From assembly GCA_965209055.1 (NCBI GenBank), contig OZ242374.1, forward strand, positions 4,832,001 through 4,896,000: DNA of 64,000 nt, read 5' to 3'. Below the pieces are notes generated by a model, which did not search any database, was not told the DNA's origin, and saw only the letters and a program-made list of their open reading frames with translations. The translations under genes were made by a program, and so were the position numbers. Numbering within the stretch: position 1 is the first letter of the stretch; each line of letters opens with the position of its first letter. Shown in pieces: positions 400-64,000 of the stretch. Source of the stretch: Acidobacteriota bacterium (GTDB lineage Bacteria > Acidobacteriota > UBA6911 > RPQK01 > JAJDTT01).

Positions 400-3000
400 C
401 TACTCCCGGGTAATGAACTCGTCCAGGTTCAAGAGAATCCGGCTGGCGCCGACCCAGGAGGCCGCTGCCGAAGGAGCGAGACCGGGAAATTCAACCGGAA
501 GGGTCAACTGCGCCAATTCCTGCTCCTTCTCCAGGATTTCGGTTTGGCGGCGCATGGCTGTCTCCAACCAATCCAACTCCTCTTCCGCGGGTGAGCGGGC
601 GAGACAGAGCCGGAAGGCATGTTCGAGGCGCGCCCGAGGATCCTCTGGTCCCTCCGTCAGGATCCGAACCGCCAGCGCCTGGGCCGCCTCGAAGAAAACC
701 TCGTCGTTGAGCAGATTCAGAGCCTGCAGCGGAGAGTTGGACCGGCCTCGGCGACACACGGCCTCATACCCCCCCGGCATGTCGAAATTGGCCAGGAACG
801 GATAGGGGAACATGCGCTGGTACTGGATGTATAGACCGCGGCGATAGCGGTCCTGCCCCTCGCTCTCCACCCACTTCCGCCGTTGCATCTTCCCGCCGGG
901 CTGGGGCGGACGAACGCTCTTGCCCCCCACGGCGGGATTCAAGAGGCCGCTCACGGCGAGAGCCGAATCGCGGATCAACTCCGCCGGCAACCGCATCCGC
1001 GTCTGCCGAGCCAGCAGGACGTTGTCCGGGTCGCTGGACTGCAGTTCCGGCCGGACCGCAGAGGATTGACGATAGGCGGCGGACATCACCATGGTCTTGA
1101 TGGCGCCCTTCAGGCTCCAGCCGTTCTCGCGGAAATCGCTGGCGAGCCAGTCCAGAAGTTGGGGATGAGACGGTTCTTCTCCCTGGAGCCCGAAATTCTC
1201 CGTGGTGAAGACGAGGCCGCGTCCGAACAGCTCCTGCCACAGGCGGTTGACCGTCACTCTCGCCGTGAGGGGATTCTCGGGACTGATGATCCAATCGGCC
1301 AGACGCTTCCTGGGAGGAGACGAATCGTCCACCTCCGGGTGCAGAAATCCGGGCACGCCCGGCTCCACGGGATCCCCCATGCGGTTGAACTCGCCACGGA
1401 CGTGAATATGGGTGGAACGGCCGTCCGCCTCGGTGGCGATGGTCTGTGCCTGGCTCAGAGCCGGGAACCCGGCCTCCAACTCCTTGAGCTTCTTCAGCAG
1501 CTCCCCAAACTTGAGCTTTTCCTCGTAGACCTTCTTGGGCACCACCTGGCTGGAGTAGCGGACGAAGTGCTCGGTAAGGATCTTGGCTTCCTTCTCGCTC
1601 CTATCCGACGGGTCCTTCCGCAGGATCTTCTCCCCCATCCCGTACACCGGATGCATGTCGCCGACCCGGACCGTCCCCACCGCCTTGTCCCAGTTCTGCC
1701 ACCGGCCCGGATTGGCCATGGCCTCCATCAGCTTGGCCTCCCACGCCGGCTGGAGCTCGGGCACCCGGTACTCGGCCAACAACTCGGCTCGCTTTTTCCG
1801 ATAGGAGGCCACCTCCCGCAAGTAGGGCCCTATTTCCCCCGGCAAAGGAGCGTCGATGTTCACCTCCTCCGCGTCATTGAAGAAGGAGAAAAGCCGGTAG
1901 TAGTCCTTCTGGCTCAAGGGATCGTACTTGTGATCGTGGCACTGGGCGCACCCCACCGTGAGTCCCAGCCAGACCGTCCCCACCGTGTTGATCCGGTTGA
2001 TCACCTGCTCGAAGCGGAACTGCACCATGTTGGTCCCGCCCTCGCGGTTGCTGGGGGTATTGCGGTGGAACCCGGTGGCCACCCTGGCCTCGATTCCGCC
2101 GTCCGGGAGCAGGTCTCCGGCGATCTGCTCCACGGTGAACCGATCGAAGGGCATATCCCGGTTCAGGGCCTGGATGACCCAGTGCCGATAGCGCCAGGCG
2201 TGGCGCCGGAAATCGTCCTGGCGGTAGCCGTCGCTGTCGGAATACCGGGCCAGATCCAACCAGTGGCGGGCCCACTTCTCCCCAAAGTGGGACGACTCCA
2301 GAAGGCGGTCCACGGCATTCTCATAAGCTCTATCGACATCCTCCGACAGAAAGGCGTCCGACTCAGTGAGCGTCGGAGGGAGCCCCGTGAGATCCAGGCT
2401 GAGGCGCCGAAGGAGCGTGGACCTGTCCGCTTCGGGCGAAGGCCGGATGCCCTCGGCCTCCAATTTGGCCAGGACGAACCGGTCCACCGGGTTCCGGACC
2501 CAGGACGCCTCCTTCACCGCAGGCGGAACGGGGCGGATGAGGGACCGGAAAGCCCAGTGCGAAGACTCGGTTCGCGCCTTTTCCGGACCCGCGTCAGCGT
2601 CGAGCTCCGGCCAGCGGGCGCCCTGGTCGATCCAGGCGCGCAGGAGCCCGACTTCATCGGAAGAGAGCCCCTTTCCTCCAGGCGGCATGACCTGATCCGG
2701 GATCACACCGGCGACGAGTTGGATGAGCCGGCTTCGAGAGCTGTCCCCGGGCCGAATCACGGCGCCCGACTCTCCTCCCCGCAACGCGTCTTCGGCCCGG
2801 TCGAGCCGCAGGCCCTTCATCTGCTGCTGCGGGCCGTGACAGAGGTAGCAGCGGCTCTCCAGCAACGGCGCCACGTCCCTCGAGTAATCGACGGTCTTCC
2901 CGGCCGGCGGCGGCAGGTCGGACGACTCCTCCGGCAGCGGTGCGGCCAAGCCGGCCGACAACAGGCAAATGGTCAGGCTTACGAGGTTGAAAGGCTTCAA
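400..3000 (-). CDS. PSD1/DUF1553 + DUF1549 protein with planctomycete-type cytochrome c domain
   Basis: Signal peptide; CYLCH and CAQCHDHK heme motifs; HWLDLARY and PLTARVTVNRLWQ motifs; C-terminal LLNLDEFITRE. Confidence 0.9.
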   Translation of the reverse strand: MKPFNLVSLTICLLSAGLAAPLPEESSDLPPPAGKTVDYSRDVAPLLESRCYLCHGPQQQMKGLRLDRAEDALRGGESGAVIRPGDSSRSRLIQLVAGVIPDQVMPPGGKGLSSDEVGLLRAWIDQGARWPELDADAGPEKARTESSHWAFRSLIRPVPPAVKEASWVRNPVDRFVLAKLEAEGIRPSPEADRSTLLRRLSLDLTGLPPTLTESDAFLSEDVDRAYENAVDRLLESSHFGEKWARHWLDLARYSDSDGYRQDDFRRHAWRYRHWVIQALNRDMPFDRFTVEQIAGDLLPDGGIEARVATGFHRNTPSNREGGTNMVQFRFEQVINRINTVGTVWLGLTVGCAQCHDHKYDPLSQKDYYRLFSFFNDAEEVNIDAPLPGEIGPYLREVASYRKKRAELLAEYRVPELQPAWEAKLMEAMANPGRWQNWDKAVGTVRVGDMHPVYGMGEKILRKDPSDRSEKEAKILTEHFVRYSSQVVPKKVYEEKLKFGELLKKLKELEAGFPALSQAQTIATEADGRSTHIHVRGEFNRMGDPVEPGVPGFLHPEVDDSSPPRKRLADWIISPENPLTARVTVNRLWQELFGRGLVFTTENFGLQGEEPSHPQLLDWLASDFRENGWSLKGAIKTMVMSAAYRQSSAVRPELQSSDPDNVLLARQTRMRLPAELIRDSALAVSGLLNPAVGGKSVRPPQPGGKMQRRKWVESEGQDRYRRGLYIQYQRMFPYPFLANFDMPGGYEAVCRRGRSNSPLQALNLLNDEVFFEAAQALAVRILTEGPEDPRARLEHAFRLCLARSPAEEELDWLETAMRRQTEILEKEQELAQLTLPVEFPGLAPSAAASWVGASRILLNLDEFITRE

Positions 3001-50197: not shown

Positions 50198-52447
50198 GTG
50201 CCTCAACCAAAGCATTACGCACACAGTGCGGAATCGGCTGCGCGAAACCGGTGGCACCCGCTGGCGAAGCATTTGGAAGACACGGCAGCGACCGCAAAAG
50301 AATTTCTCGCACCTGTGGTTGGAGGGGAATTCGGGTTCGCAGCCGGTCTACTACACGACCTTGGCAAGTACGCGCCGCGATTCCAGCGACGGCTCGACGG
50401 CGCAGGCCGTGTTGACCACGCCACGGCTGGCGCCAAAAAGGCGATCGGGCGTTACGGGGAGCTTCGCGGCAAAATGTTGGCATTCTGTATTGCCGGTCAT
50501 CATGCCGGCCTCGCCAACGGTGTGAATGGCCACAAAATCTCCGCCCTGGCAGACCGGCTCCAGAAGCAGGTTCCACGACTCGACCCGGTGTGGAACGAGG
50601 AGATCACATTTCCAGACTTACCAATACCATCCCTTAAGGCGCGTGATCGGGACAGCGCGGCCTTTTCCGCCTCCTTCTTCATCCGCATGGTGTTCTCCGC
50701 TCTTGTGGACGCGGACTTCCTGGACACGGAGGCGTACTACAATGCGCTGGCAGGAACTTCGAAGGCACGCGGGCAGCACCCGGAACTGCGAGAGTTGTCC
50801 GGGCGTCTCGATACATATCTCCAAACGCTTGGGTTGAGCGCAGAGCCCAGTGACGTGAACAGGCTGCGTCAAGAGGTGCTGATTTACGCCCGGAAGCAGG
50901 CAGCAAAGCCACCGGGCCTGTTCACTCTGACCGTTCCCACGGGAGGCGGCAAGACGCTGACCTCCCTTTCCTTCGCCCTGGACCACGCCGCGCGCCACGG
51001 GCTTGCGCGGGTCATCTACGTAATCCCTTACATGAGCATCATCGAACAGACGGCCGCCGTGTTTCGCGAGGCGCTCCGCGACGGCCCGACCGGTGCAGCG
51101 GACTTCGTTGTCGAACATCACAGCACCTTCGAAGATTGGCCCTATAGTCGGGAGGCGAAGGAAAAGCTGTTCCTGGCGATGGAAAACTGGGACGCCCCCA
51201 TCATCGTCACCACGGCCGTACAATTCTTTGAGAGCCTGTTCGCAAACCGCCCCGCACGCTGCCGCAAGTTGCACAACATCGCAAACAGCGTCATTGTCCT
51301 GGACGAAGCACAGACCCTGCCCTTGAAATATCTGCGTCCCTGCGTTGCCGCCCTCGACGAGTTGGCCCGTAACTGGCACGCGAGTGTCGTGCTCTGCACG
51401 GCTACACAGCCAGCCCTGGCAGAAACCTCCGGCTTCCGTGGAGGCCTGGAGAACCTGCGCGAGTTGGCCCCCGAGCCTCAGCTTCTCTACCAAACCCTGA
51501 AGCGCACACAGATTCGTAGTGTGGGACGGCTGGGCGACGCCGTACTCGCAGAACGGTTGCGTGATTCGCCGCAAGTCCTGTGCATCGTTAACACTCGGCG
51601 CCACGCCCGCGAGCTGTACGAAGCGCTCGGGGACATCGAGAACACCTTTCATCTGACCACCCTGATGTGTGCACACCATCGAAGGGAGCGACTCGACAGA
51701 GTACGTGTGCTCCTGAAGGAGGGGGCACCGGTGCGATTAGTCGCTACATCTCTCATCGAGGCCGGGGTCGATGTGGACTTCCCTGTCGTCTGGCGAGCAG
51801 AAGCGGGGTTGGAGTCGATTATCCAAGCCGCCGGACGGTGTAACCGCGAAGGTCGAGTACCCCTCGCTGACGTGTTCGTGTTCGAGCCGGAAGAAGGGGA
51901 AGGGCGCAAGCCCCCACCAGAGATCTGCCAGTTCGCAGCAGCGGCGCGTAGCGTCCTGAGCCGCCACGACGATCCCATGTCCCTGACGTCCATCGACGAC
52001 TACTTCCGGGAACTCTACTGGAGCAAGGGCAAAGATGCACTCGACGCCAAACACATCCTTCGGCAGCTACGTGAGCGTCGAACAACCCTAGACTTCCCCT
52101 TTGAGACTATCGCCCGGGAGTTTCGGTTGATCGAGACAGCCATGGAACCAGTGATTGTCCCCTATCGTGGCGCCAACTGCGACGCCCCAACCGTCGATCG
52201 CCTCCTCGAAAATCTGAAGTGGGTCGAGCGCCCGGGCCACATCGCACGCCTGCTTCAGCCCTATGTCGTAAATGTCCCATCTTCGGCAAGGGTGTCGCTG
52301 CTACGCGCCGGCGCCGCGCGGATCGTCCGGGAAGCCGATTTTGGTATGCAGTTTGTAGTTTTGACCAATATCGACCTTTACCACGAGGAACTTGGCTTGA
52401 TTTGGGATGATCCCACGTTCCTTAAGTTGGAAAGTCTTCTCATGTGA
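50198..52447 (+). CDS. cas3: Cas3 HD nuclease-helicase (type I-C)
   Basis: HL..., LHDLGK, GHH, SALVDAD, PTGGGKT, DEAQ, IEAGVDVDF and QAAGRCNREG. Confidence 0.96.
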   Translation: MPQPKHYAHSAESAARNRWHPLAKHLEDTAATAKEFLAPVVGGEFGFAAGLLHDLGKYAPRFQRRLDGAGRVDHATAGAKKAIGRYGELRGKMLAFCIAGHHAGLANGVNGHKISALADRLQKQVPRLDPVWNEEITFPDLPIPSLKARDRDSAAFSASFFIRMVFSALVDADFLDTEAYYNALAGTSKARGQHPELRELSGRLDTYLQTLGLSAEPSDVNRLRQEVLIYARKQAAKPPGLFTLTVPTGGGKTLTSLSFALDHAARHGLARVIYVIPYMSIIEQTAAVFREALRDGPTGAADFVVEHHSTFEDWPYSREAKEKLFLAMENWDAPIIVTTAVQFFESLFANRPARCRKLHNIANSVIVLDEAQTLPLKYLRPCVAALDELARNWHASVVLCTATQPALAETSGFRGGLENLRELAPEPQLLYQTLKRTQIRSVGRLGDAVLAERLRDSPQVLCIVNTRRHARELYEALGDIENTFHLTTLMCAHHRRERLDRVRVLLKEGAPVRLVATSLIEAGVDVDFPVVWRAEAGLESIIQAAGRCNREGRVPLADVFVFEPEEGEGRKPPPEICQFAAAARSVLSRHDDPMSLTSIDDYFRELYWSKGKDALDAKHILRQLRERRTTLDFPFETIAREFRLIETAMEPVIVPYRGANCDAPTVDRLLENLKWVERPGHIARLLQPYVVNVPSSARVSLLRAGAARIVREADFGMQFVVLTNIDLYHEELGLIWDDPTFLKLESLLM

Positions 52448-52489
52448 ATACTCTACAATCTCGCACACATTAGGATGATTTTCTACTAC

Positions 52490-52518
52490 ATGCACGAAGA
52501 ACAAAAATATGCCATACT
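52490..52518 (+). promoter_or_regulatory. Putative promoter of the mini-array/hicA transcript
   Basis: ATGCAC (52490-95), 17 bp, CATACT (52513-18) with extended TGn; implied start site is near the first pseudo-repeat. Confidence 0.45.
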
Positions 52519-52525
52519 TCCGAGT

Positions 52526-52624
52526 GTCGTTGGCCGACGAGAGCCAACGCGGGTTGAAACGTGCAAGTGGTGCGTTTGGTCGCAACGAGTCGTCCCCGGC
52601 TGCTCCGGGGGCGCGGATTATCCG
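52526..52624 (+). CRISPR. Single-spacer mini-array with degenerate type I-C repeats (crRNA-like regulatory RNA candidate)
   Basis: GTCGTTGGCCGACGAGAGCCAACGCGGGTTGAAAC, then a 28-nt spacer, then GTCGTCCCCGGCTGCTCCGGGGGCGCGGATTATCCG. Both units keep the GTCG start, a hairpin and the CG-YGGRTT 3' part of the array repeat. Confidence 0.8.
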
Positions 52625-52672
52625 GTAGGACAACGAGGAAAGTGGATTTAGACCCAGCAGCCGGAATTTGCC

Positions 52673-52879
52673 GTGAAGGTTCGCGATGTCATACGCACGC
52701 TCAAGCAGCATGGGTTCCGATTGGACCGTCAATCCGGAAGCCACAGGCTGTTCGAAGGTGTGGCCGGCGGACGCCGCCGCATAGTGCCGGTACCCGGAAA
52801 GGATGGCGACGACGTTCGTGTAGGTACGTTGTCAGCAATCCGACGGCAATCCGGTCTGCCAAAGGCGCTGTTCCGCTAG
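52673..52879 (+). CDS. hicA: HicA-family mRNA interferase toxin
   Basis: KVRDVIRTLKQHGFRLDRQSGSHRLF...VPVP...GTLSAIRRQSGL. Confidence 0.9.
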   Translation: MKVRDVIRTLKQHGFRLDRQSGSHRLFEGVAGGRRRIVPVPGKDGDDVRVGTLSAIRRQSGLPKALFR

Positions 52880-53208
52880 GTAATCGCAGGAAGTTTATGG
52901 TGGAAGGAACGACCCTGAAAACAACCGGCCGCGCCTGGAACTCGAGACAACCACGTCATGAACGCGAGTTTTGCGCGAAGGTGCCATGGGGACTTGCGTG
53001 CCAAGAAATGGCTTTGTTCTTGGACCGGCAACTCGGCAACCCTCTCCAAGTAAAGTTCGATACAGACGGCGAGCGATTTCTTGACTTCGTCCAGAGACGG
53101 CGCGAACGTTGCGACATCCAAGTCGATGCAGATCGCTTCCCAATCATCACCGGAGGGGTACGCATAGCATTTGAGGTCAAGGGTCACATTCGACTCCCTG
53201 GGTTCCAT
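52876..53208 (-). CDS. HicB-like protein lacking an obvious DNA-binding domain, convergent with hicA
   Basis: YPSGDDWEAICIDLDVATFAPSLDEVKKSLAVCIELYLE matches the HicB N-terminal pattern. Alternative GTG start at 53187 after GGGAG. Confidence 0.65.
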   Translation of the reverse strand: MEPRESNVTLDLKCYAYPSGDDWEAICIDLDVATFAPSLDEVKKSLAVCIELYLERVAELPVQEQSHFLARKSPWHLRAKLAFMTWLSRVPGAAGCFQGRSFHHKLPAIT

Positions 53209-53294
53209 ATGGTAAAGGGAGGCATCTACCATCAAAATACCAAAGGATGGCACCATATGCACGGAGTCGCAGCCCACGACGCCGAGAGGACCTT

Positions 53295-53966
53295 ATGCCA
53301 TACGGAGTGAAGTTGCACATTTGGGGTGACTACGCCTGCTTCACGCGACCCGAAATGAAGGTTGAGCGGGTGTCGTACGACGTGATAACACCTTCCGCGG
53401 CGCGCGGGGTCGTCGAAGCGATTCATTGGAAACCGGCCATCCGCTGGATGATCGACCGCATCCACGTCTTAAAACCGATCCGCTTTGAGAACCTCCGCCG
53501 CAACGAGTTGGGTCGAAAGATTCCAGCAGGCAGTGTCCTTCGGGCGATGAAACAAGGCAAGACGGAGGGACTTTACACCCTGATTGAGGACAACCGCCAG
53601 CAGCGGGCCACGACCCTGTTGCGCGACGTGGCCTACGTTATCGAAGCGCACTTCGTCCTCACTGAGGCCGCGACGTCTTGCGACACCGCAGCCAAGCATC
53701 TGTCCATGTTTAACCGACGTGCTTCCAAGGGCCAGTGCTTTCACCGACCCTATCTCGGTACCCGTGAATTCGCCGCCAACTTCGCGCCAGTGGAGGGCAT
53801 GATGCCAAAGTCAACGCTGCCTACCACTCAACAGGATCTCGATTTGGGCTGGATGTTGTACGACATCGACTTTGAAGATGATCGGTCCCCCCGTTTTTTC
53901 CGCGCCAAGCTGCAAAATGGCGTGATGGACGTGCCGCCGCTGGACTCCGAGGAAGTCAGGGCGTGA
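53295..53966 (+). CDS. cas5c: Cas5c (Cas5d), type I-C
   Basis: WGDYACFTRPEMKVERVSYDVITPSAARG, RRNE, LRDVAY and PYLGTREF. Confidence 0.96.
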   Translation: MPYGVKLHIWGDYACFTRPEMKVERVSYDVITPSAARGVVEAIHWKPAIRWMIDRIHVLKPIRFENLRRNELGRKIPAGSVLRAMKQGKTEGLYTLIEDNRQQRATTLLRDVAYVIEAHFVLTEAATSCDTAAKHLSMFNRRASKGQCFHRPYLGTREFAANFAPVEGMMPKSTLPTTQQDLDLGWMLYDIDFEDDRSPRFFRAKLQNGVMDVPPLDSEEVRA

Positions 53967-55747
53967 GTATTCTTCAAGCTCTTGCCAGCCATTACAAACG
54001 CCTTCATGCAAATGGAGAAGCGCCAGATTACGGGTATTCCCGTGAGCCGGTTTCGTTTGCCATCGTGTTGTCGCCGGATGGTGAACCCGTCGATGTCATG
54101 GATTTGCGGGATCCATCAGGCAGGATGCCAAGGCCATCGCTCCGCGGGGTACCCCGACCCGTCACCCGCTCATCGAACATTGCCGCTAATTTCCTGTGGG
54201 ACAAGACCGCCTATACGCTCGGCATGAAGCGTGACCGCGACACGAAACAGCCGACGTCCGCAAGCCGCGAGCACGCTGCTTTCAGGAAGCTACACCAAGA
54301 ACTGCTCCCAGGGACAGGAGACGAGGGACTCAAAGCTCTACGCATCTTCTTGGAGCAATGGCAATCGGAGAATTACTCCAGCCTACGGCACGGAGACGAC
54401 ATGCTGGACGCGAACGTCATCTTTCGACTTGAGAGCGAACAGCGGTTCCTGCATCAGCGGCCAGCGGCACGAGGTATCTGGCAAGCCTATCTGGCAGGAA
54501 CAGACAAATCTCTAGGTCTCTGTCTTGTCTCAGGTGAGCAGGCACCGATCGAACGGCTTCACCCGAAGATCAAAGGCGTCAGAGGAGCGCAATCCTCTGG
54601 CGCGTCCATGGTCTCTTTCAACCTTGACGCCTTCGCATCGTTCGGCAAGAGGCAAGGCTCCAATGCCCCCGTGTCGAAACGAGCTGTCTTCTCCTATGCC
54701 ACCGCCCTGAACACGTTGCTGGCAAGGGACAGCGCGCGACGCATTCAGATCGGCGATGCGACGACGATCTTCTGGGCCGAGGCATCCGGCAACGAAGCGT
54801 GTGCCGCAACGGCGGAAGATTTGTTCTCGTTGCTTGCCGATCCGCCGACGGATGCGGAAGAAGCCATCAAGGTGGGAGACAAGCTCTTGGCGGTTGCGGA
54901 AGGTAAACCGCTGACCGCTGTCGAGCCAGAATTAGACGAGCACACAAGTTTCTACGTGCTTGGACTCGCTCCCAATGCGGCGCGCCTCTCGGTCCGTTTC
55001 TGGCATGTTGACAGCATCGGAGCGATTGCACGACAGATTGGCGAGCACTGGCGTGATCTGCTCATTGATCCGCTTCCCTGGACCACCCCGCCTGGCGCAT
55101 GGCGCCTGCTATACGAAACGGCCGTGCAGCGTAAATCTGAAAACATACCGCCAATCCTCGGTGGCGCGTTAATGCGTTCGATACTAACAGGTGGTCGTTA
55201 TCCCCGATCTCTACTTGCCGCCGTCGTGGCCCGAATGCGCGCCGAGGGAAACATCACGGCCCTCAGGGCAGCGATCTGTAAGGCATGTCTTGCCCGTGAC
55301 CACCGCCTGGGCTTCGAAATGGAGGATGTACCCGTGAGCCTGAACCCGGAAGAAACCAACCAAGCCTATCGCCTTGGAAGACTGTTTGCTTTGTACGAAG
55401 ACGTCCAACGTGCCGCCTTGGGCAATGTCAACTCGACGATCAAGGATCGCTATCTTGGGGCCGCTTCCGCCACCCCAGCATCGGTTTTCCCCTTGCTTGA
55501 GCGCAACTCCGCGAATCACCTTGCGACGCTCCGGAAAGGCAACAAAGGTGGTCTAGCCCATTGGTTTGAGCAACAGATCGACTCCATATTCGACGGTTTG
55601 GACGGGTCCTTTCCACGTAGTCTTCGTCTTGAGGATCAAGGACGTTTCGCGATCGGCTATCACCACCAGAGAGTCAAGAAACGAACCTCTTCAGACAAAG
55701 GAAGAGAAGGTACGGACGCCGAAACCCATGATGAGGAAGGACCATGA
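53963..55747 (+). CDS. cas8c: Cas8c/Csd1
   Basis: [46 protein letters not shown] and [11 protein letters not shown]. Confidence 0.95.
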
Positions 55748-56676
55748 ACCCGATCAAACACCGCTATGACTTCGTTTATCTGTTCGATGTCACCAACGGG
55801 AATCCGAACGGCGACCCGGACGCGGGTAACCTGCCACGTCTTGACCCGGAGACCAATCAGGGGCTGGTTTCGGATGTCTGTCTGAAGCGCAAGGTGCGTA
55901 ACTTCGTCGCCTTGACCAAGGAAGACGCACCGGGCCACGAGATCTATGTCACCGAGCGTGCCATTCTTGAACTGCAGCAAAAGCGCGCCTGGGAAGCGAT
56001 TATCCCTGAAGCCACAGCCAAAGATCGGGAAAAGCTCCCCAAGGACCAGCAGAAAGCCCGTGAGATCACACGGTGGATGTGCGCTAACTTCTTTGATGTC
56101 CGTACATTCGGTGCAGTCATGTCAACGAGGGGCGCCAACTGCGGTCAAGTGCGCGGTCCGGTCCAGTTCTCGTTCGCGCGTTCGATCGATCCGATTCTCC
56201 CTTTGGAGGTCTCCATTACACGGATGGCTGCGACCACCGAAGCCGACGCCGAGTCCAAAGGCGACATCCGCACGATGGGCCGTAAGCACATCGTCCCCTA
56301 TGGCTTGTACCGCGCTCACGGTTACGTATCCGCTTGTCTCGCCGGGGGTGCTAAGGGTACCGGCTTCTCCGAGGAAGATCTTGCACTAGTCTGGTTGGCT
56401 CTCGAACAAATGTTCGATCATGATCGATCTGCGGCCCGTGGCGAGATGGCAGCACGGAGGCTGGTCCTGTTCGAGCATGAAACCGCACTCGGCAATGCGG
56501 CCGCCCACCGGTTATTCGAGCGCGTCGCGGTCAAGCGAGCATTCGACGGTAGAGAATACGAGCCCGGCGCGCGCGATGCTCGCCATCTGCCGCCAGCACG
56601 GGCCTACACCGACTATGCGGTCCACATCGACGAGACGGATTTGCCGAACGGGATAAAGATCATAGACCGGATCTGA
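55744..56676 (+). CDS. cas7c: Cas7c/Csd2
   Basis: [44 protein letters not shown] and DRSAARG. Confidence 0.96.
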
Positions 56677-56680
56677 ATTG

Positions 56681-57316
56681 ATGGATGCGATCGAACCTGT
56701 CGCACAAGACGAATTGGTACCGATTTCGGCCCTGCAGCACATGCTCTACTGCCCGCGACAATGTGCGCTCATCCATGTCGAGCGGCACTGAGCCGAAAAC
56801 CGCTTTACTGCCGAAGGAAGCATCTTGCACCTGCGCCCCGACGCCGGAAGGGACGAACGCCGCCGCACCATACGAATCGAGCGCAGTGTTCCCCTCCGCT
56901 CTTCTCGGCTTGGTCTTTTCGGCGTGGCCGATGTAGTCGAGATGCATGCCGGCGGACGCATCTATCCGGTGGAGTACAAGCGCGGCCGGCCCAAGACTCA
57001 TCGTGCCGACGAAGTGCAACTCTGTGCGCAGGCAATTTGTCTAGAGGAAATGCTGGATGTCCCTGTTCTGGAGGGAGCCTTGTTCTATGGCCGCAGCCGG
57101 CGCCGTAAGGTGATCGTATTCGATGCTGGGCTGCGCGCGCTCACCGAAGCCGTCGCCGCCGATACGTGGAGCATGCTCGCCGCCGGCCGGACGCCACCAG
57201 CCGAGTTCGAAGCGCGCAAGTGCAACGCCTGCTCGCTCAAGGAAGCATGTCAGCCAGAGAGCCCCCGAGGGGCAGATGTCGTCGATCGCTGGCTGAGGCG
57301 CGCCGTCGAGGGCTGA
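56681..57316 (+). pseudogene. cas4: Cas4 interrupted by an in-frame TGA at 56789-56791
   Basis: [32 protein letters not shown]...GVADVVE..PVEYKRG..QLCAQA...CNACSL..C; the stop replaces the usually conserved Trp. Confidence 0.88.
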
Positions 57317-57327
57317 TACAAAGTTCC

Positions 57328-58368
57328 ATGCGCCGTCACCTGAACACCCTGTACGTGACGACGGAAAACGCTTGGCTGCACAAGGATGGCGAGAATGCGG
57401 TGGTCAAGGTAGAGGGCTCAGAACGCGGCCGTGTACCCGTACATCTCCTCGGCGGCATCGTCTGTTTTGGTTCGATCGGACTGACGCCGCGACTGATCGG
57501 GCACTGCGCCGAACGCGGCGTTTGCATCTCACTGATGACCCGCTACGGCCGCTTTCTGGCTCGCGTCGAAGGCCCTGTCGCTGGAAACGTGCTTCTGAGG
57601 CGGAGTCAATATCGCGCCAGCGATGATGAGACCACCACCGTAACGCTGGTACGCAACTTGTTGACGGGAAAACTGCTCAATCAACGGACCGTAGTCCGGC
57701 GGGCGCTACGTGATCATGGCAAGAACATGCAGCCGGATGCACGCGCCCGCATGGAAGCCTGCGAGCGCCGACTGAGTGGTGCGGTGCGGCGCACGACTCG
57801 ATCAAAATCGACGAACGTACTGAGAGGAATCGAAGGAGACGCCGCGCGGACCTACTACAGCGTGTTCAATGATCTAGTATTGAGGACAGAATCAGCCTTC
57901 AGGTTCACAAACCGTTCGCGCCGACCGCCACTCGATCCAGTGAACGCTTTACTGTCGTTCGTTTATACCCTTCTGGTTCACGATTGCCGATCGGCCCTGG
58001 AAACTGTGGGGCTCGATCCCGCTGCGGGATTCTTGCATCGAGATCGTCCAGGTCGACCGGGCCTTGCGCTCGACCTCATGGAAGAGCTGCGGTCCGTAAT
58101 CGCTGACCGTCTGGTTCTATCGTTGATCAATCGCAAACAGATCTCGGCCAAAGATTTCACCACGGCAATCAGTGGGGCAGTCTCATTGCGAGACGATCCA
58201 CGGAAGGCGATTCTGGTCGCGTACCAAGCGCGAAAGAAAGATGAACTGACGCACCCGTTTCTCAAGGAAAAAATGATGCTCGGTATCGTCCCGTTCGTCC
58301 AAGCTACTCTGATGGCCCGGCGGTTGCGGGGTGACCTTGACGGCTATCCTCCGTTTCTCTGGAAGTAG
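57328..58368 (+). CDS. cas1: Cas1, type I-C
   Basis: LNTLYVTT, GNVLLRR, LRGIEG, RSRRPPLDPVNALLSF, GFLH, DLMEE and YPPFLWK. Confidence 0.96.
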   Translation: MRRHLNTLYVTTENAWLHKDGENAVVKVEGSERGRVPVHLLGGIVCFGSIGLTPRLIGHCAERGVCISLMTRYGRFLARVEGPVAGNVLLRRSQYRASDDETTTVTLVRNLLTGKLLNQRTVVRRALRDHGKNMQPDARARMEACERRLSGAVRRTTRSKSTNVLRGIEGDAARTYYSVFNDLVLRTESAFRFTNRSRRPPLDPVNALLSFVYTLLVHDCRSALETVGLDPAAGFLHRDRPGRPGLALDLMEELRSVIADRLVLSLINRKQISAKDFTTAISGAVSLRDDPRKAILVAYQARKKDELTHPFLKEKMMLGIVPFVQATLMARRLRGDLDGYPPFLWK

Positions 58369-58377
58369 GGGGCAACA

Positions 58378-58668
58378 ATGTTGATGCTTATCACGTACGA
58401 TATTGCCACTGGAGAATCTGGAGGACAACGACGCTTACGTCGTGTCGCTCGGCTTTGTCAGGATCTCGGACAGCGGGTTCAGTACTCAGTGTTCGAGTGC
58501 CAAGTCGACCCGGCTCAATGGGCGATACTACGTTCCCGACTCATGAACGAAATCGACGAAAATGCCGATAGTCTTCGCTTTTACAGACTCGGCTCCAATT
58601 GGCGCTCGCGCATCGAACATGTGGGAAACAAGAAGTCCTACGATCCAGATGGACCACTCGTATTCTGA
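58378..58668 (+). CDS. cas2: Cas2
   Basis: LITYDI, RRLRRVA, RVQYSVFEC and DSLRFY. Confidence 0.96.
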   Translation: MLMLITYDIATGESGGQRRLRRVARLCQDLGQRVQYSVFECQVDPAQWAILRSRLMNEIDENADSLRFYRLGSNWRSRIEHVGNKKSYDPDGPLVF

Positions 58669-58850: not shown

Positions 58851-61800
58851 GTCGCCCCCTTACACGGGGGCGTGGATTGAAACTCTGATATCAGAAACAC
58901 TTGCCAGGGGGCCTCTGGTCGCCCCCTTACACGGGGGCGTGGATTGAAACACCCCCGCGACCGCAGGCGACTGGTTCCCGAGGACGTCGCCCCCTTACAC
59001 GGGGGCGTGGATTGAAACTGCGTAATCTCCCCACGGGTGACCATCTGGTCCAGGTCGCCCCCTTACACGGGGGCGTGGATTGAAACCCGAATCTCCTGGC
59101 GAGTCCACGGCCGGCGCGCGGGTCGCCCCCTTACACGGGGGCGTGGATTGAAACACCTTCTGATAGATCGGGTCCGGCGCTTCCTCGAGTCGCCCCCTTA
59201 CACGGGGGCGTGGATTGAAACCTGCAACCGGATCAAGGGGAACCGGGGCATGGAGGTCGCCCCCTTACACGGGGGCGTGGATTGAAACACTCTGATGCTG
59301 GTAACTCTCAACGTCGTGTGGGGTCGCCCCCTTACACGGGGGCGTGGATTGAAACCAGGTAGGGGCCTCGTGGACGGCCCAATCATTCGCGTCGCCCCCT
59401 TACACGGGGGCGTGGATTGAAACACTCTGATGCTGGTAACTCTCAACGTCGTGTGGGGTCGCCCCCTTACACGGGGGCGTGGATTGAAACCAGGTAGGGG
59501 CCTCGTGGACGGCCCAATCATTCGCGTCGCCCCCTTACACGGGGGCGTGGATTGAAACAAAACGGCGTCTCCGAGTCCATCTCAGGGCTCCAGTCGCCCC
59601 CTTACACGGGGGCGTGGATTGAAACCGGCTCGTTGTTCGAATAACGAACCCGGTATTTCGGGTCGCCCCCTTACACGGGGGCGTGGATTGAAACTTGACG
59701 AGTCTCAAAAGATTCTGGCGGTGCCTACGTCGCCCCCTTACACGGGGGCGTGGATTGAAACCAGGCCATGAGCAATGCTCTGCCGTCCGAGGTCACGTCG
59801 CCCCCTTACACGGGGGCGTGGATTGAAACACCGACGCAATACTCTGTTCCACCAGGCCCAGTCGTCGCCCCCTTACACGGGGGCGTGGATTGAAACCTAC
59901 GTTATGAAGTCCTTGGGACGGTGCCGGCTCGTCGCCCCCTTACACGGGGGCGTGGATTGAAACTTGATAAACTTGGCCAGGCCCTTCTGCGCCGCCGGTC
60001 GCCCCCTTACACGGGGGCGTGGATTGAAACTGGCATGCGCTTGATCGTCGCGGACTGACTGCCCGTCGCCCCCTTACACGGGGGCGTGGATTGAAACAAC
60101 ACGGAGGGAGCATGACCGACGACAAGCACCGGGTCGCCCCCTTACACGGGGGCGTGGATTGAAACCTTGCGCTCGGCGAAGCTCTGCCGGCGCTGCCGGC
60201 GTCGCCCCCTTACACGGGGGCGTGGATTGAAACCTCGTGTCTTCCATGGCGCTCCTCCTCTGATGCGGTCGCCCCCTTACACGGGGGCGTGGATTGAAAC
60301 AGGAACAATATCCCGACGTTGATTGCCGCTCCGATGTCGCCCCCTTACACGGGGGCGTGGATTGAAACCAAGAGGAGAACCGCACCATGACACCTACCCC
60401 ACGTCGCCCCCTTACACGGGGGCGTGGATTGAAACAAACTGGAACCGGCGTACTGGCGAGCCGTCGAGCGTCGCCCCCTTACACGGGGGCGTGGATTGAA
60501 ACGATCGTCACCGCGGAGCGTGGCCTCCGAGCCCCGTCGCCCCCTTACACGGGGGCGTGGATTGAAACTCGCCGACAACGCCGCCACCGATCCCGACGAC
60601 GGGTCGCCCCCTTACACGGGGGCGTGGATTGAAACTCCAAGACCACCAAAGATAAGGTTTGTTCGGCCCGTCGCCCCCTTACACGGGGGCGTGGATTGAA
60701 ACATTGGTAAATTGAACTGCATCCCGAATGGCCCCGGGTCGCCCCCTTACACGGGGGCGTGGATTGAAACTACCGATTAAACCCTACTGCCCAGGGTGAA
60801 ACTAGTCGCCCCCTTACACGGGGGCGTGGATTGAAACACGGTATTTGCAAATCCGTTCAAATTTGCCAGCAGTCGCCCCCTTACACGGGGGCGTGGATTG
60901 AAACCATGCGGGTGTTGATTGCTTTTTGGTCAACCTGAGTCGCCCCCTTACACGGGGGCGTGGATTGAAACCCAATAGGGCTTGATCAATACAAATGGGT
61001 GAAACGTCGCCCCCTTACACGGGGGCGTGGATTGAAACACCCATATTTCGCTTGGCGAGGCGTGGATTCACGTCGCCCCCTTACACGGGGGCGTGGATTG
61101 AAACTCTATATTGGGCTCTCTTCGTCTCTGATATTCTCGTCGCCCCCTTACACGGGGGCGTGGATTGAAACACCGGAACGGGCGGGATATCACTTCGGAA
61201 TTCACGTCGCCCCCTTACACGGGGGCGTGGATTGAAACCAAGCTCTCTGCAATGGACGGTTGATCGAGGTCAAGTCGCCCCCTTACACGGGGGCGTGGAT
61301 TGAAACCCACCACGCTTCCCGTCGCCACCCGGGAATCGGCGGTCGCCCCCTTACACGGGGGCGTGGATTGAAACTCGGTTGTAGTCTCGATACTTGGCCA
61401 CCCCTTTCAGGTCGCCCCCTTACACGGGGGCGTGGATTGAAACACCCAAAAGATGGCCACGCAGGCTGGATTCTACGGGTCGCCCCCTTACACGGGGGCG
61501 TGGATTGAAACTCTGGCAGCGCGAAGAACCCATTGGGCCGCGTCGTGTCGCCCCCTTACACGGGGGCGTGGATTGAAACTCCAAGGGGCTGACAGCATTG
61601 AAAGTCGCCCTCGTGTCGCCCCCTTACACGGGGGCGTGGATTGAAACACGGAACCCTGTTTCATTGTATGAAAGGATGTAGTCGCCCCCTTACACGGGGG
61701 CGTGGATTGAAACCAAGAAGGGGCATATACCGGGCCGCGTTTTGAAGGTCGCCCCCTTACACGGGGGCGTGGATTGAAACAAATGAACAGGTAGCGGACC

Positions 61801-62452
61801 AAGCAAGAATGATTGTCGCCCCCTTACACGGGGGCGTGGATTGAAACAATATAAGGGTCTAGTTCCTTGCCCGTTCCAACCGTCGCCCCCTTACACGGGG
61901 GCGTGGATTGAAACGACCCGGAGGCCGCACGTGCCTAGAACACCGAAAGTCGCCCCCTTACACGGGGGCGTGGATTGAAACCGCTAAGAACGTGAAGGGC
62001 CTCCACGAGGTCACGTCGCCCCCTTACACGGGGGCGTGGATTGAAACGTCGATCGCTGTCCGTCGCACACGGGCTGAGGAGGTCGCCCCCTTACACGGGG
62101 GCGTGGATTGAAACGATCGTCCGGCTGTCGTCGTCGTCGCGCAGCACGTGTCGCCCCCTTACACGGGGGCGTGGATTGAAACAATTACGGGATTTCAGAG
62201 CACACTGGTCGGGCCGCGTCGCCCCCTTACACGGGGGCGTGGATTGAAACCCACAGACTGGTCAGATGATGCCATCAGCCCGTCGTCGCCCCCTTACACG
62301 GGGGCGTGGATTGAAACCAGCAGGAGGACGAACCATAACTGATTCCTCCAAGTCGCCCCCTTACACGGGGGCGTGGATTGAAACACTCTATTCCCCGCCA
62401 GGTACGGCGGGTCGAGGAAGTCGCCCCCTTACACGGGGGCGTGGATTGAAAC
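58851..62452 (+). CRISPR. Type I-C CRISPR array, 54 repeats / 53 complete spacers (manual count)
   Basis: 33-nt repeat GTCGCCCCCTTACACGGGGGCGTGGATTGAAAC with spacers of about 33-36 nt. It is followed by a 15-nt truncated spacer and an IS end. Confidence 0.98.
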
Positions 62453-62611
62453 TACACTTTGCGGAGCTGTCAATGGCCGTTGAAAATTGCACACTCTTGG
62501 CCTTCGAAAATTGCACACTTTTGGCCACTGAAAATTGCACAGGTCGCGGGAGCCCCCGTGGCGGTCGCTACGCTCCCTTCACGGGGGCTCCCGCGGCCGG
62601 ACCTGGTCCCC

Positions 62612-63433
62612 TCATGCCCCCCTCCTCCCCAAGCCCGATTCCTGGGCACTGACGGCTCGGGCGGCGGTCGGATGGATCGCCTTCGAGAGCTCCGCGTGGT
62701 GCCTCAACCGGTAGCTATTGCCTCGGATGTTGACGATGTGGCACCGGTGCAGGATCCGGTCCAGAAGCGCCGCCGCCATCACCTCGTCCCCCAAGATCTG
62801 GCCCCATTCCTCGAAGCCCTTGTTCGAGGTCAACACCGTCGAGGCCCGCTCGTAGCGCCGGTTCACCAGTTGGAAGAACAGCACCGCTCCGCTCTGGCTG
62901 ACCGGTAGGTAGCCGATCTCATCCACCACCAGGAGCGCCGGATGGGTCAGGGTCTTGAGCCGGTGGTTGAGCCGGCCCGCCGCTTTCGCTTCCTCCAACG
63001 AGTCAATCAGGTCCACCAACGTGCCGTAGTAGACCCGCCGACCACGCTCGGCCGCGGCGATCGCCAGGCTGATGGCCAAGTGCGTCTTTCCCACCCCGGG
63101 CGGACCCAGGAAGACGATGTTCTCCCGTCGCTTCACGAAGCCCAGCTCGTGCAGCGAGTCGATCTGCTCCCGCTTGATCGAAGGCTGGAAGCTGAAGTCG
63201 AACTCCGCGAGCGTCTTGATCGTCGGCAGTCGGCTGGAACGCATCGCCGCCTCCAGCCGCCGGCTGTTGCGCAGGGCGATCTGGGCCGCCAGGAGCCGTT
63301 CGATGGCTTCCGAGGCGGTGGTCCCTCCACCATCCACTCCGGAGAGTACGCTATCCAGGGCTTCCAGGGCACCCGGCATCTTCAGGTCCGCCAGCTGGGC
63401 GGCGATGCGCTCACGACGGGAAGGGAGGTTCAC
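62612..63433 (-). CDS. istB: IS21 helper ATPase
   Basis: KTLAEFDFSFQP, GPPGVGKTHLA, VDEIGY, TSN and LLDRILH. Confidence 0.95.
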   Translation of the reverse strand: MNLPSRRERIAAQLADLKMPGALEALDSVLSGVDGGGTTASEAIERLLAAQIALRNSRRLEAAMRSSRLPTIKTLAEFDFSFQPSIKREQIDSLHELGFVKRRENIVFLGPPGVGKTHLAISLAIAAAERGRRVYYGTLVDLIDSLEEAKAAGRLNHRLKTLTHPALLVVDEIGYLPVSQSGAVLFFQLVNRRYERASTVLTSNKGFEEWGQILGDEVMAAALLDRILHRCHIVNIRGNSYRLRHHAELSKAIHPTAARAVSAQESGLGRRGA

Positions 63434-64000
63434 GACACCCCTCCCGTGAGGCGGGCATACTCGGTCAGGGGACGGCGCTCGACGTCCACCATACGCGGCC
63501 AGTTCGTCGCCGGTACCGGAGTTGCCGACGGCTTCGGCAGTGGAACCACAGTGGAGTGGTAAGGCCAAGTGGCCAAAGGAGTTAGAGTCTCACGCTCCCG
63601 CTCGAACCGGTCCACGGGCCGTTCCTTGAGCGTCCCGTGGTTGCGGACATTGGCCTCTTCGTCCCGCCACTTCCGAGCCCGGGCGTTGAGATCGGTGTCC
63701 GAGACGAAGTCCCGGCCATAGAAGAAACTCTCCCGAATGTAGCGGACCGGCCGCTCCACCTTCCCCTTCGTCTGAGCTCGATAGGGTCGGCAGGCCCGCA
63801 CCCGAAAACCCCAGTGGCGGCTGAAGCGAACGAACTCCCGGTTCTCGATCAACCGTCCGCCCTCTTCGCGCCCATCCCGGACGATGACCGCCTTCATCTG
63901 GTCGAACAGAAGTTCCCCAGGGACACCCCCGAAGTAAGTGAACGAGGCCTCCAGGCCCCGCATCACCACCGGCATCGTCTTGCGCTCGTAGTACCGAAAC
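63430..64000 (-). CDS. istA: IS21 transposase, C-terminal part
   Basis: FGGVP..LLFDQMK, CRPYRAQTKGKVERPVRY, RNHGT and VERRPLTEY. Confidence 0.93.
   Translation of the reverse strand, partial: FRYYERKTMPVVMRGLEASFTYFGGVPGELLFDQMKAVIVRDGREEGGRLIENREFVRFSRHWGFRVRACRPYRAQTKGKVERPVRYIRESFFYGRDFVSDTDLNARARKWRDEEANVRNHGTLKERPVDRFERERETLTPLATWPYHSTVVPLPKPSATPVPATNWPRMVDVERRPLTEYARLTGGVS

Follow-up and report, generated by a model that had tools for sequence, protein, structure and literature searches.

A degenerate mini-array and two partial target sites around a convergent HicAB-like cassette in an acidobacterial type I-C cas operon: a candidate CRISPR-supervised toxin–antitoxin pair

[quoted passage not shown] In CreTA and CreR, reported for types I-B, I-E and V-A (Liu et al., bioRxiv 10.1101/2023.03.10.532045), a guide encoded by a degenerate mini-CRISPR represses promoters through limited complementarity. 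A version with a protein toxin, CrePA, which joins creA to the CRISPR-repressed toxin CreP, was described in the type I-F systems of Acinetobacter (Shu et al., bioRxiv 10.1101/2024.01.05.574328). Shmakov et al. 2023 (PMC10120712) described mini-arrays with spacers that partly match promoters, either that of cas8 or those of cargo, toxin–antitoxins (TA) among it, mainly in type I-D; the TA enrichment given in that article concerns types I-B, I-E, I-F1 and I-D, and type I-C is only tabulated, with a mini-array in 7% of 1206 loci. For type I-C itself, the CRISPR-supervised immune systems (CRISIS), with Nezha and Gabija, have been reported (Shu et al., bioRxiv 10.1101/2024.12.27.630466): a scan of the cas3–cas5c gap of I-C loci yielded these two and eight new cargoes repressed by CRISPR RNA-like RNAs (crlRNAs), and the cargo systems listed there are Sir2, PHP nuclease, ATPase, TIR, caspase, SLATT, transmembrane and MBL. 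Here we analyse 64,000 nucleotides (nt) of an Acidobacteriota bacterium (assembly GCA_965209055.1, contig OZ242374.1, positions 4,832,001 to 4,896,000; this whole stretch is hereafter the window), where a type I-C operon holds, in the gap that separates cas3 from cas5, a degenerate repeat–spacer–repeat unit, or mini-array, followed by a hicA toxin gene and a convergent hicB-like gene (Table 1). The reading towards which we lean, if only slightly, is that the CRISPR-associated effector complex (Cascade), carrying the crlRNA of this mini-array, would occupy the promoter at either outer end of an inserted, convergent HicAB cassette and keep it down.

The gap measures 847 bp and holds cargo other than cas genes, as in the CRISIS loci; cas3 abuts cas5 in 17 of the 18 other acidobacterial I-C loci examined. 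An earlier annotation of the same DNA, made from the letters alone (the sequence-only reading), had placed here two degenerate I-C repeats around a 28-nt spacer, and the sequence, the RNA folds and a covariance model all agree with that placement. The tail of the upstream repeat, psiR1 (CGGGTTGAAAC), shares 9 of 11 bases with the tail of the array repeat (TGGATTGAAAC), and both psiR1 and psiR2 fold with the geometry of the array repeat, namely two nucleotides, a stem, a loop and an 11-nt tail, at predicted energies of -11.7 and -19.7 kcal/mol, respectively, compared with -15.7 kcal/mol for the array repeat. The covariance model was built from 10 I-C repeats of different sources and run over 58.8 kb, on both strands and outside the array; it ranked psiR1 first (14.2 bits, E 0.1) and psiR2 second (13.3 bits, E 0.2). 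Taken singly these E-values are marginal, but the two units lie 63 nt apart, on the cas strand and between cas3 and cas5, so that jointly they are not attributable to chance. The spacer between them is shorter than those of the array (28 nt vs 33-36 nt). An Rfam scan of positions 52400-53300 gave chance-level matches only (E of at least 0.69), and a 58-aa open reading frame (ORF) overlapping the mini-array (52475-52651) has no family match.

What is found inside this cas operon is then a pair of repeat-like sequences derived from the CRISPR repeat of the locus, with predicted hairpins and a 5′ handle that would allow processing and loading, around a spacer whose first bases partly match sites flanked by a protospacer-adjacent motif (PAM) in putative promoter regions. 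It runs on the cas strand of a locus with full-length cas3, cas5, cas8 and cas7 and with 54 identical repeats. To judge from these features, the mini-array is most likely a degenerate repeat–spacer–repeat unit that arose from the I-C repeat of its own locus and a functional gene for a crRNA-like RNA.

The matches that carry the argument are two. When guide positions 1-13, minus the unpaired 6th and 12th, were scored along the cas region (14.8 kb), the top matches other than the guide itself were a sequence between the hicB-like gene and cas5 (site B, 10/11) and another one upstream of the mini-array (site A, 9/11); two other sequences reached 9/11, both without a PAM. Site A, next to a TTC, pairs with spacer positions 1-5, 7, 8, 10 and 11 and forms an rG:dT wobble at 9, just as the sequence-only reading had described for a TTC-flanked partial match upstream of the mini-array and hicA, and against random guides it is not a chance match. 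Site B was absent from that reading and came from a mismatch search with a PAM plus the first guide bases, which returned site A too. It lies 30-45 nt upstream of the cas5 ATG; spacer positions 1-5, 8-11 and 13 are paired there, and position 7 forms an rG:dT wobble. Its PAM, TCC, is described as functional but weaker in the I-C systems of Bacillus halodurans and Legionella pneumophila.

Both sites begin exactly at guide position 1 beside an I-C PAM, both are mismatched at the unpaired 6th position, and the remaining positions up to 11 form either Watson-Crick or rG:dT pairs. The sole paired positions at which sites A and B differ (A or G) are those where the guide has a G, at 7 and 9, which makes one guide able to pair with both. 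Moreover, the two sites lie on one strand although their predicted promoters face opposite ways, a disposition to be expected of a strand-specific guide more than of a promoter element common to both. Indeed, a protein operator or a -35 element behind the three related sequences was considered and ruled out, given that the similarity starts exactly at guide position 1 by the PAM, that it is found on one strand at opposed promoters, and that there is no palindrome.

The chance expectation was estimated over the 1190 intergenic positions of the locus. Matches of at least 9/11 next to a TTC were found for 51 of 20,000 random guides, and matches of at least 10/11 next to any PAM for 244 of 20,000; the two occurred together for 3 of 20,000, and none of the 53 real array spacers reached either mark. 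A second null model allowed wobble pairs, accepted the five published I-C PAMs and counted fully paired sites. Two or more such sites were obtained with 4 of 100,000 random guides and with 10 of 100,000 shuffles of the spacer, and even one such site with none of the 53 real spacers. By these comparisons, sites A and B are non-chance matches to the guide of the mini-array.

Each site would overlie a promoter, all promoter assignments at this locus being read from the sequence. Upstream of the mini-array, the sequence-only reading had proposed ATGCAC-17-CATACT (here P_A); both the elements and their spacing are present, but a sigma-70 scan does not call it as a promoter. The predicted transcription start, at ~52526, would be the first base of psiR1, the TGn extended -10 (52510-52518; TGnNATACT) is kept in a relative of the same genus (G006), and site A overlies the weak -35. 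On the opposite side of the cassette, a putative extended -10 of hicB is kept in four genomes (it reads TGGTACTTT or TGTTAATTT ahead of hicB in G005, G006 and G007), and site B spans approximately -35 to -23 of the promoter so predicted. The PAM would lie ~28 nt from the predicted start at P_A and ~37 nt from that of the hicB promoter (~53227); 37-46 bp are given for CRISIS. No plus-strand promoter is recognisable before cas5, either by eye on the sequence or in the sigma-70 scan, and no terminator was predicted in 52300-53400, including the interval between psiR2 and hicA. The G+C content of the cas3 end and of the gap before the mini-array (52300-52600) is 48%, vs 63% in the genome, which is compatible with a promoter region or with an insertion boundary.

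The cargo itself starts 48 nt downstream of psiR2 with hicA, which is assigned by its Pfam match to the HicA toxins. Residues G22 and H24 of the protein are invariant in 4 homologues, and we take them to have the catalytic role. The sequence-only reading regarded hicA as a toxin under Cascade repression and made no mention of an antitoxin. That hicA is a lone toxin of this kind is not supported, as a convergent gene abuts it, with the two stop codons interlocked (overlap at 52876-52879), and its product is predicted to bind HicA. This product has no sequence match in Pfam, NCBIfam or the PDB (the latter tried both as a single sequence and as a profile). It has 11 homologues of 102-103 aa, the closest of them (P0001-P0006) with 74-83% identity, and their length fixes its start at GTG 53187. 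A structural model with a mean predicted local distance difference test score (pLDDT) of 68 shows three strands followed by helices; the best Foldseek matches, which are weak, are 2yzt (E 0.24, probability 0.98) and the deposited antitoxin 3k6q, and the Atlas cluster that comes first bears the name HicB family (score 0.93). The predicted complex of HicA with this protein scored 0.79 vs 0.01 for the best control, a mark that is reached by 58 of 80 solved complexes and by 2 of 110 mismatched pairs. The runs share at least 94% of their contacts, the partner has a pLDDT of at least 71, and His24 of HicA falls inside the predicted interface; HicAB complexes have already been solved, so this result may reflect likeness to them. 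Altogether, weak fold matches, the name of the Atlas cluster, the complex prediction and the conserved adjacency to hicA may point to the HicB family, and the convergent gene is predicted to encode a HicB-type antitoxin that binds HicA.

The same convergent pair with interlocked stops occurs outside CRISPR loci in the same genus. In two of these loci (L005 and L006) both genes are full-length, and in two others (L003 and L004) hicA is broken and hicB intact. As the pair stands free of CRISPR in such loci, we regard it as a mobile cassette. Furthermore, the hicA leader just 3′ of psiR2 is homologous to the leader of the free cassettes, which places an insertion boundary right after the mini-array. 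Neither the HicB-like protein nor the DNA of the mini-array had any match in the plasmid collection.

From these elements a small circuit can be drawn. Cas5c would cleave the transcript 3′ of the hairpin of psiR1, leaving an 11-nt handle, the 28-nt guide and the psiR2 hairpin, and the processed RNA would load into Cascade. The complex would then bind two PAM-flanked sites that bracket the hicA and hicB genes inserted tail to tail between cas3 and cas5: site A, with its TTC and a perfect seed, over the -35 region of the putative promoter for the mini-array and hicA, and site B, with its TCC and one wobble, in the control region shared by the divergent hicB and cas5, where it would cover the -35 of the putative hicB promoter. 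As the cargo consists of two convergent genes, each with its promoter on the outer side, a single guide needs a target at either end, and two are present. Since pairing is limited to the first 11-13 bases of the guide, Cascade is proposed to bind without triggering cleavage by Cas3; binding without cleavage had also been put forward in the sequence-only reading, and the short match is in keeping with the published cases of CreA and crlRNAs. In such a circuit Cascade would repress the HicAB cargo, feed back on its own guide RNA and possibly act on cas5-cas8-cas7 as well. Whenever Cascade is titrated, inhibited or lost, both promoters would open, that of the toxin to a greater extent than that of the antitoxin. 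In all of this, the anatomy of the locus, the matches beyond chance, the HicA family assignment and the predicted binding of the two proteins are what the analysis shows; the promoters, the RNA processing, the binding of Cascade and both the direction and the size of the regulation are what we infer.

A single other genome with this layout was found among 60 relatives, contig scans and plasmids: that of G006, in which the locus is 76% identical. Its psiR1 keeps 29 of 35 bases (83%), with changes mostly in the loop, while the flanking upstream intergenic DNA keeps 54%. The spacer keeps 19 of 28 bases, including positions 1-5 and 8-11, psiR2 is degraded and the hairpins are weaker. As for the conservation that the sequence-only reading had set as a check, the pseudo-repeat unit is thus retained and the seed match is not. 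The best TTC-flanked site of G006 is an 8/11 match ~600 nt upstream of cas3; its guide, on the other hand, matches site B of the window at all 11 scored positions. In G006, cas5 has a TAA at codon 10 and cas3 a frameshift near residue 231, while hicA and hicB are intact, and with these lesions the lack of matching sites may merely be decay. We read G006 as a decaying I-C copy, unable to confirm the circuit. Its locus (L002/L013) retains a 21-repeat array. A cluster of substitutions that would have created site B specifically in the genome of the window was also considered, and dropped, as the region upstream of hicB has diverged over its entire length.

Wider searches added little. A pattern of handle plus seed hit 17 loci in metagenome contigs and 5 in genome contigs, all of them ordinary arrays or chance matches without repeats except for the contig of G006 itself, and none in viral contigs. 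In other I-C cas3–cas5 intervals, the repeat model found no unit in the gaps of 17 acidobacterial I-C loci, where its two matches (E 0.4-0.55) lie elsewhere in the loci, and an 18th has a repeat unit with no cas3 nearby. An acidobacterial I-C locus of G322 (L047) carries a strong solitary repeat unit (positions 1110-1138, minus strand; 24.4 bits, E 1e-4), ~370 nt upstream of cas5 and in the opposite orientation, with a DUF559-like ORF near and cas3 absent within 1.5 kb, which may be a further arrangement of cargo plus repeat unit.

Several points weigh against the circuit as we have drawn it. The criteria of significance were set after the sites had been seen, and the matches are short, each made of a single wobble and 9-10 Watson-Crick pairs. 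A relaxed filter of PAM plus seed lets through 53 sites across the 6-Mb genome, some of them scoring equally high, so that the argument rests on the position of sites A and B and not on their uniqueness. The sigma-70 scan of 52300-53400 called no promoter at all, neither of the two proposed here among them, although acidobacterial promoters are poorly known. The guide of G006 matches only 6/11 at each of the aligned sites A and B, and its 19-kb locus holds no site above 9/11, nor one of 9/11 with a known PAM; there is then no independent conservation and no covariation of guide and target, and the case rests on one genome. An intact hicA beside broken cas5 and cas3 genes in the same relative indicates that the loss of Cascade can be survived. 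Finally, the repression of an antitoxin promoter is an odd design.

The short matches, the existence of comparable ones elsewhere in the genome, the more degenerate and targetless unit of G006 and the E-values of 0.1-0.2 obtained by single repeats against the I-C model would all suit a mini-array that is just a decaying fragment without function, with two partial matches due to chance or left over from the past. We hold this unlikely, because both sites together have a chance probability on the order of 1e-4 or lower, the matches keep an exact register with the PAM and with the rule of the 6th position, psiR1 is more conserved than its flanks, and the hairpins and the handle are intact precisely in the genome whose Cascade genes are intact. 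If the unit does work, it could work as an addiction module of the strict CreTA/CrePA type, as the sequence-only reading assumed: Cascade and the RNA would be the effective antitoxin of HicA, and their loss, or inhibition by an anti-CRISPR protein, would arrest or kill the cell and so safeguard the cas genes. The canonical TTC of site A and its perfect seed at 1-5 and 7-8, upstream of the mini-array and hicA, speak for it, and so do the lack of a predicted terminator between psiR2 and hicA and the precedent of CrePA, where a I-F mini-array precedes a protein toxin repressed by Cascade. Such an addiction is nonetheless doubtful, with a protein antitoxin gene that abuts hicA and whose product is predicted to bind over the conserved His24, with the pair also standing free outside CRISPR loci, and with a site B that would release the antitoxin along with the toxin. 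The obligate version, in which losing Cascade sets the toxin free, is made less likely by G006, with its cas5 TAA codon and cas3 frameshift next to an intact hicA and no matching target. Likewise, the silencing of hicA by Cascade does not describe the entire circuit once a second and longer target is found over the predicted hicB promoter and upstream of cas5.

The insertion boundary right after the mini-array also suggests a different history, in which the mini-array and its self-targeted promoter would be an older device for Cascade autorepression, of the CreR type, and hicAB a later insertion; the real targets would be cas5-cas8-cas7, with site B on the cas5 side. Both sites do lie upstream of these genes, the guide would pair at both with the coding strand of rightward transcription, site B comes shortly before the cas5 ATG, and CreR and CreA are reported to repress effector promoters. 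We give this history only a minor chance, as there is no recognisable plus-strand promoter before cas5, cas3 abuts cas5 in nearly all the other acidobacterial I-C loci (17 of 18) with no repeat unit in those 17 gaps, the 18th having a unit but no cas3 nearby, and site B overlaps the conserved elements of the hicB promoter at least as well as any promoter of cas5. A last possibility, bolder and in our opinion quite improbable, is that one guide gates the two arms of the convergent TA pair unequally, with a strong site at the toxin and a weak one at the antitoxin/cas5 promoter, so that the occupancy of Cascade would set the HicA:HicB ratio; crRNA titration or an anti-CRISPR would flip a transcription-collision switch toward the toxin and boost the Cascade genes. 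The reading we retain remains that of a HicAB cassette kept down by Cascade at both of its outer promoters.

How does this locus stand next to the described systems? With CrePA it shares a degenerate psiR1-psiS-psiR2 unit that lies past cas3 and ahead of the gene for a small protein toxin, and a guide with partial complementarity to a site at the -35 region that is flanked by a PAM, so that repression without cleavage is expected. The differences are the type (I-F, as against I-C in the window), the toxin, which in CrePA has a KilAC domain and no protein antitoxin and in the window is HicA with a convergent HicB, and the targets, as CrePA has one between creA and creP with 19 matching bases and the window has two of 11-13 bases, one of them upstream of the mini-array itself. 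The likeness to CreTA and CreR consists of the degenerate mini-CRISPR guide and its limited complementarity to the promoters that it represses. A single CreA target serves in Haloarcula hispanica to repress the promoters of the toxin and cas8, which diverge, and site B is also placed in a divergent region, that of hicB and cas5, where it is the antitoxin gene, not the toxin, that faces cas5. CreT is an RNA toxin with CreA as its sole antitoxin, and CreR loci carry no toxin, unlike the window, which carries hicA. So, a toxin gene stands beside a mini-array within the cas locus, as in CreTA and CrePA, but guide and effector would not be the only antitoxin, in view of the HicB-like gene.

With CRISIS, the window has in common the type I-C, the placement of cargo other than cas genes in the cas3–cas5c gap, a crlRNA that derives from the repeat and has an 11-nt handle, and the proposed role, in which the cargo becomes armed upon inhibition of Cascade. 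The targets of CRISIS have a TTC or TTA PAM before the cargo and mismatches at the 6th and 12th positions or at PAM-distal ones; in the window, the PAM is TTC at site A and TCC at site B. The order of the elements differs too, because in CRISIS the repeat unit comes directly after the cargo and before cas5c, whereas in the window the mini-array precedes hicA, and hicB stands between hicA and cas5; and each CRISIS has one target, not two. The mini-arrays of Shmakov et al. resemble the present one in being computationally predicted, with the upstream repeat better kept and the downstream one degraded, and some of those cases have TA cargo between the mini-array and the effector genes, with PAM-flanked partial targets in the promoter regions of the cargo.

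As to the pair itself, the Gly-x-His HicA and the small HicB-like partner with no recognisable DNA-binding domain are like Class 1 of the type II HicAB modules, where HicB lacks such a domain (Gerdes 2024, PMC10865869). The classes given in that article are bicistronic or fused, whereas the window genes, for all the conserved Gly/His motif of their HicA domain, are convergent and not a bicistronic operon, as they also are in at least two other loci (L005 and L006); the word convergent does not occur in that article, nor does it list a CRISPR-linked class. The word HicA does not occur in the main text of PMC10120712, nor does Hic occur in the main text of bioRxiv 10.1101/2024.12.27.630466. A HicAB case with an I-C mini-array was not found in print, the supplements of these two articles, which may list I-C loci with TA cargo, lying outside that search. 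The principle, its I-C version and TA cargo are already in print; HicAB as such cargo was not found there, and the locus makes no new category.

Table 1. Features of the I-C locus in window coordinates (amino acids, aa)
Feature	Position	Strand	Description
cas3 (HD nuclease-helicase)	50198..52447	+	749 aa; Pfam DEAD, Cas3-like_C_2, Cas3_HD
Site A	52483..52498	-	TTC PAM (52498-52496) and partial protospacer 52495-52483, GTGCATGTAGTAG
P_A, putative promoter of the mini-array and perhaps hicA	52490..52518	+	weak -35 ATGCAC (52490-52495), TG (52510-52511), -10 CATACT (52513-52518), spacing 17
psiR1, degenerate I-C repeat	52526..52560	+	GTCG, swapped 7-bp stem CGTTGGC/GCCAACG, 11-nt handle CGGGTTGAAAC
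Predicted mature crRNA-like RNA	52550..52612	+	11-nt 5′ handle, 28-nt guide and psiR2 hairpin, by analogy with Cas5c processing of I-C crlRNAs; 3′ end uncertain
psiS, spacer (guide)	52561..52588	+	28 nt; G at positions 7 and 9
psiR2, degenerate repeat	52589..52624	+	9-bp stem; decayed tail, repeat-like in first 6 bases only
hicA, toxin gene	52673..52879	+	68 aa, GTG start; Pfam HicA_toxin PF07927, E 1.5e-16, 60.7 bits (cut-off 27)
hicB-like, antitoxin gene (predicted)	52876..53187	-	103 aa, GTG 53187 (upstream ATG 53208); convergent with hicA
Putative extended -10 of hicB promoter	53234..53242	-	TGGTATTTT; suggested by conservation
Site B	53250..53265	-	TCC PAM (53265-53263) and partial protospacer 53262-53250, GTGCATATGGTGC
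cas5c	53295..53966	+	223 aa, ATG at 53295; Pfam Cas_Cas5d
cas8c	53963..55747	+	full-length; Pfam Cas_Csd1
cas7	55744..56676	+	full-length; Pfam Cas_Cas7
cas1	57166-58368		
cas2	58378-58668		
CRISPR array	58851..62452	+	54 identical 33-nt repeats, 53 spacers of 33-36 nt

Some further features of the locus deserve a mention. The cas4 gene (56681-57316) contains an in-frame TGA (56789-56791) between ...ALIHVERH and AENRF, and its Pfam Cas_Cas4 match (profile positions 55-159) is limited to the downstream ORF of 163 aa; this adaptation gene is a possible pseudogene, despite the 54 identical repeats of the array. Immediately after the last of these repeats there are three tandem 24-nt units (TGGCCNTNGAAAATTGCACA...) at 62474-62545. 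At least four further identical repeats lie past the end of the window, at ~64679-64913 (genome position 4896679 onwards), ~2.2 kb after the array end at 62452, and minus-strand ORFs occupy 62612-63975 in between, so that the array may have been split by an insertion.

If the circuit holds, a classical protein TA pair, HicAB, would be added to the cargoes that type I-C systems supervise through crRNA-like RNAs, with an example in the Acidobacteriota, far from the Neisseria and Acinetobacter models, and with a natural case of one short guide that controls two opposed promoters. Being small, with ~850 bp plus three Cascade genes, it could easily be tested with reporters. Were the unequal gating of the two arms also true, a single RNA would join roles like those of CreA, CreR and CRISIS, and CRISPR would supply transcriptional control to a HicB that has no DNA-binding domain of its own.

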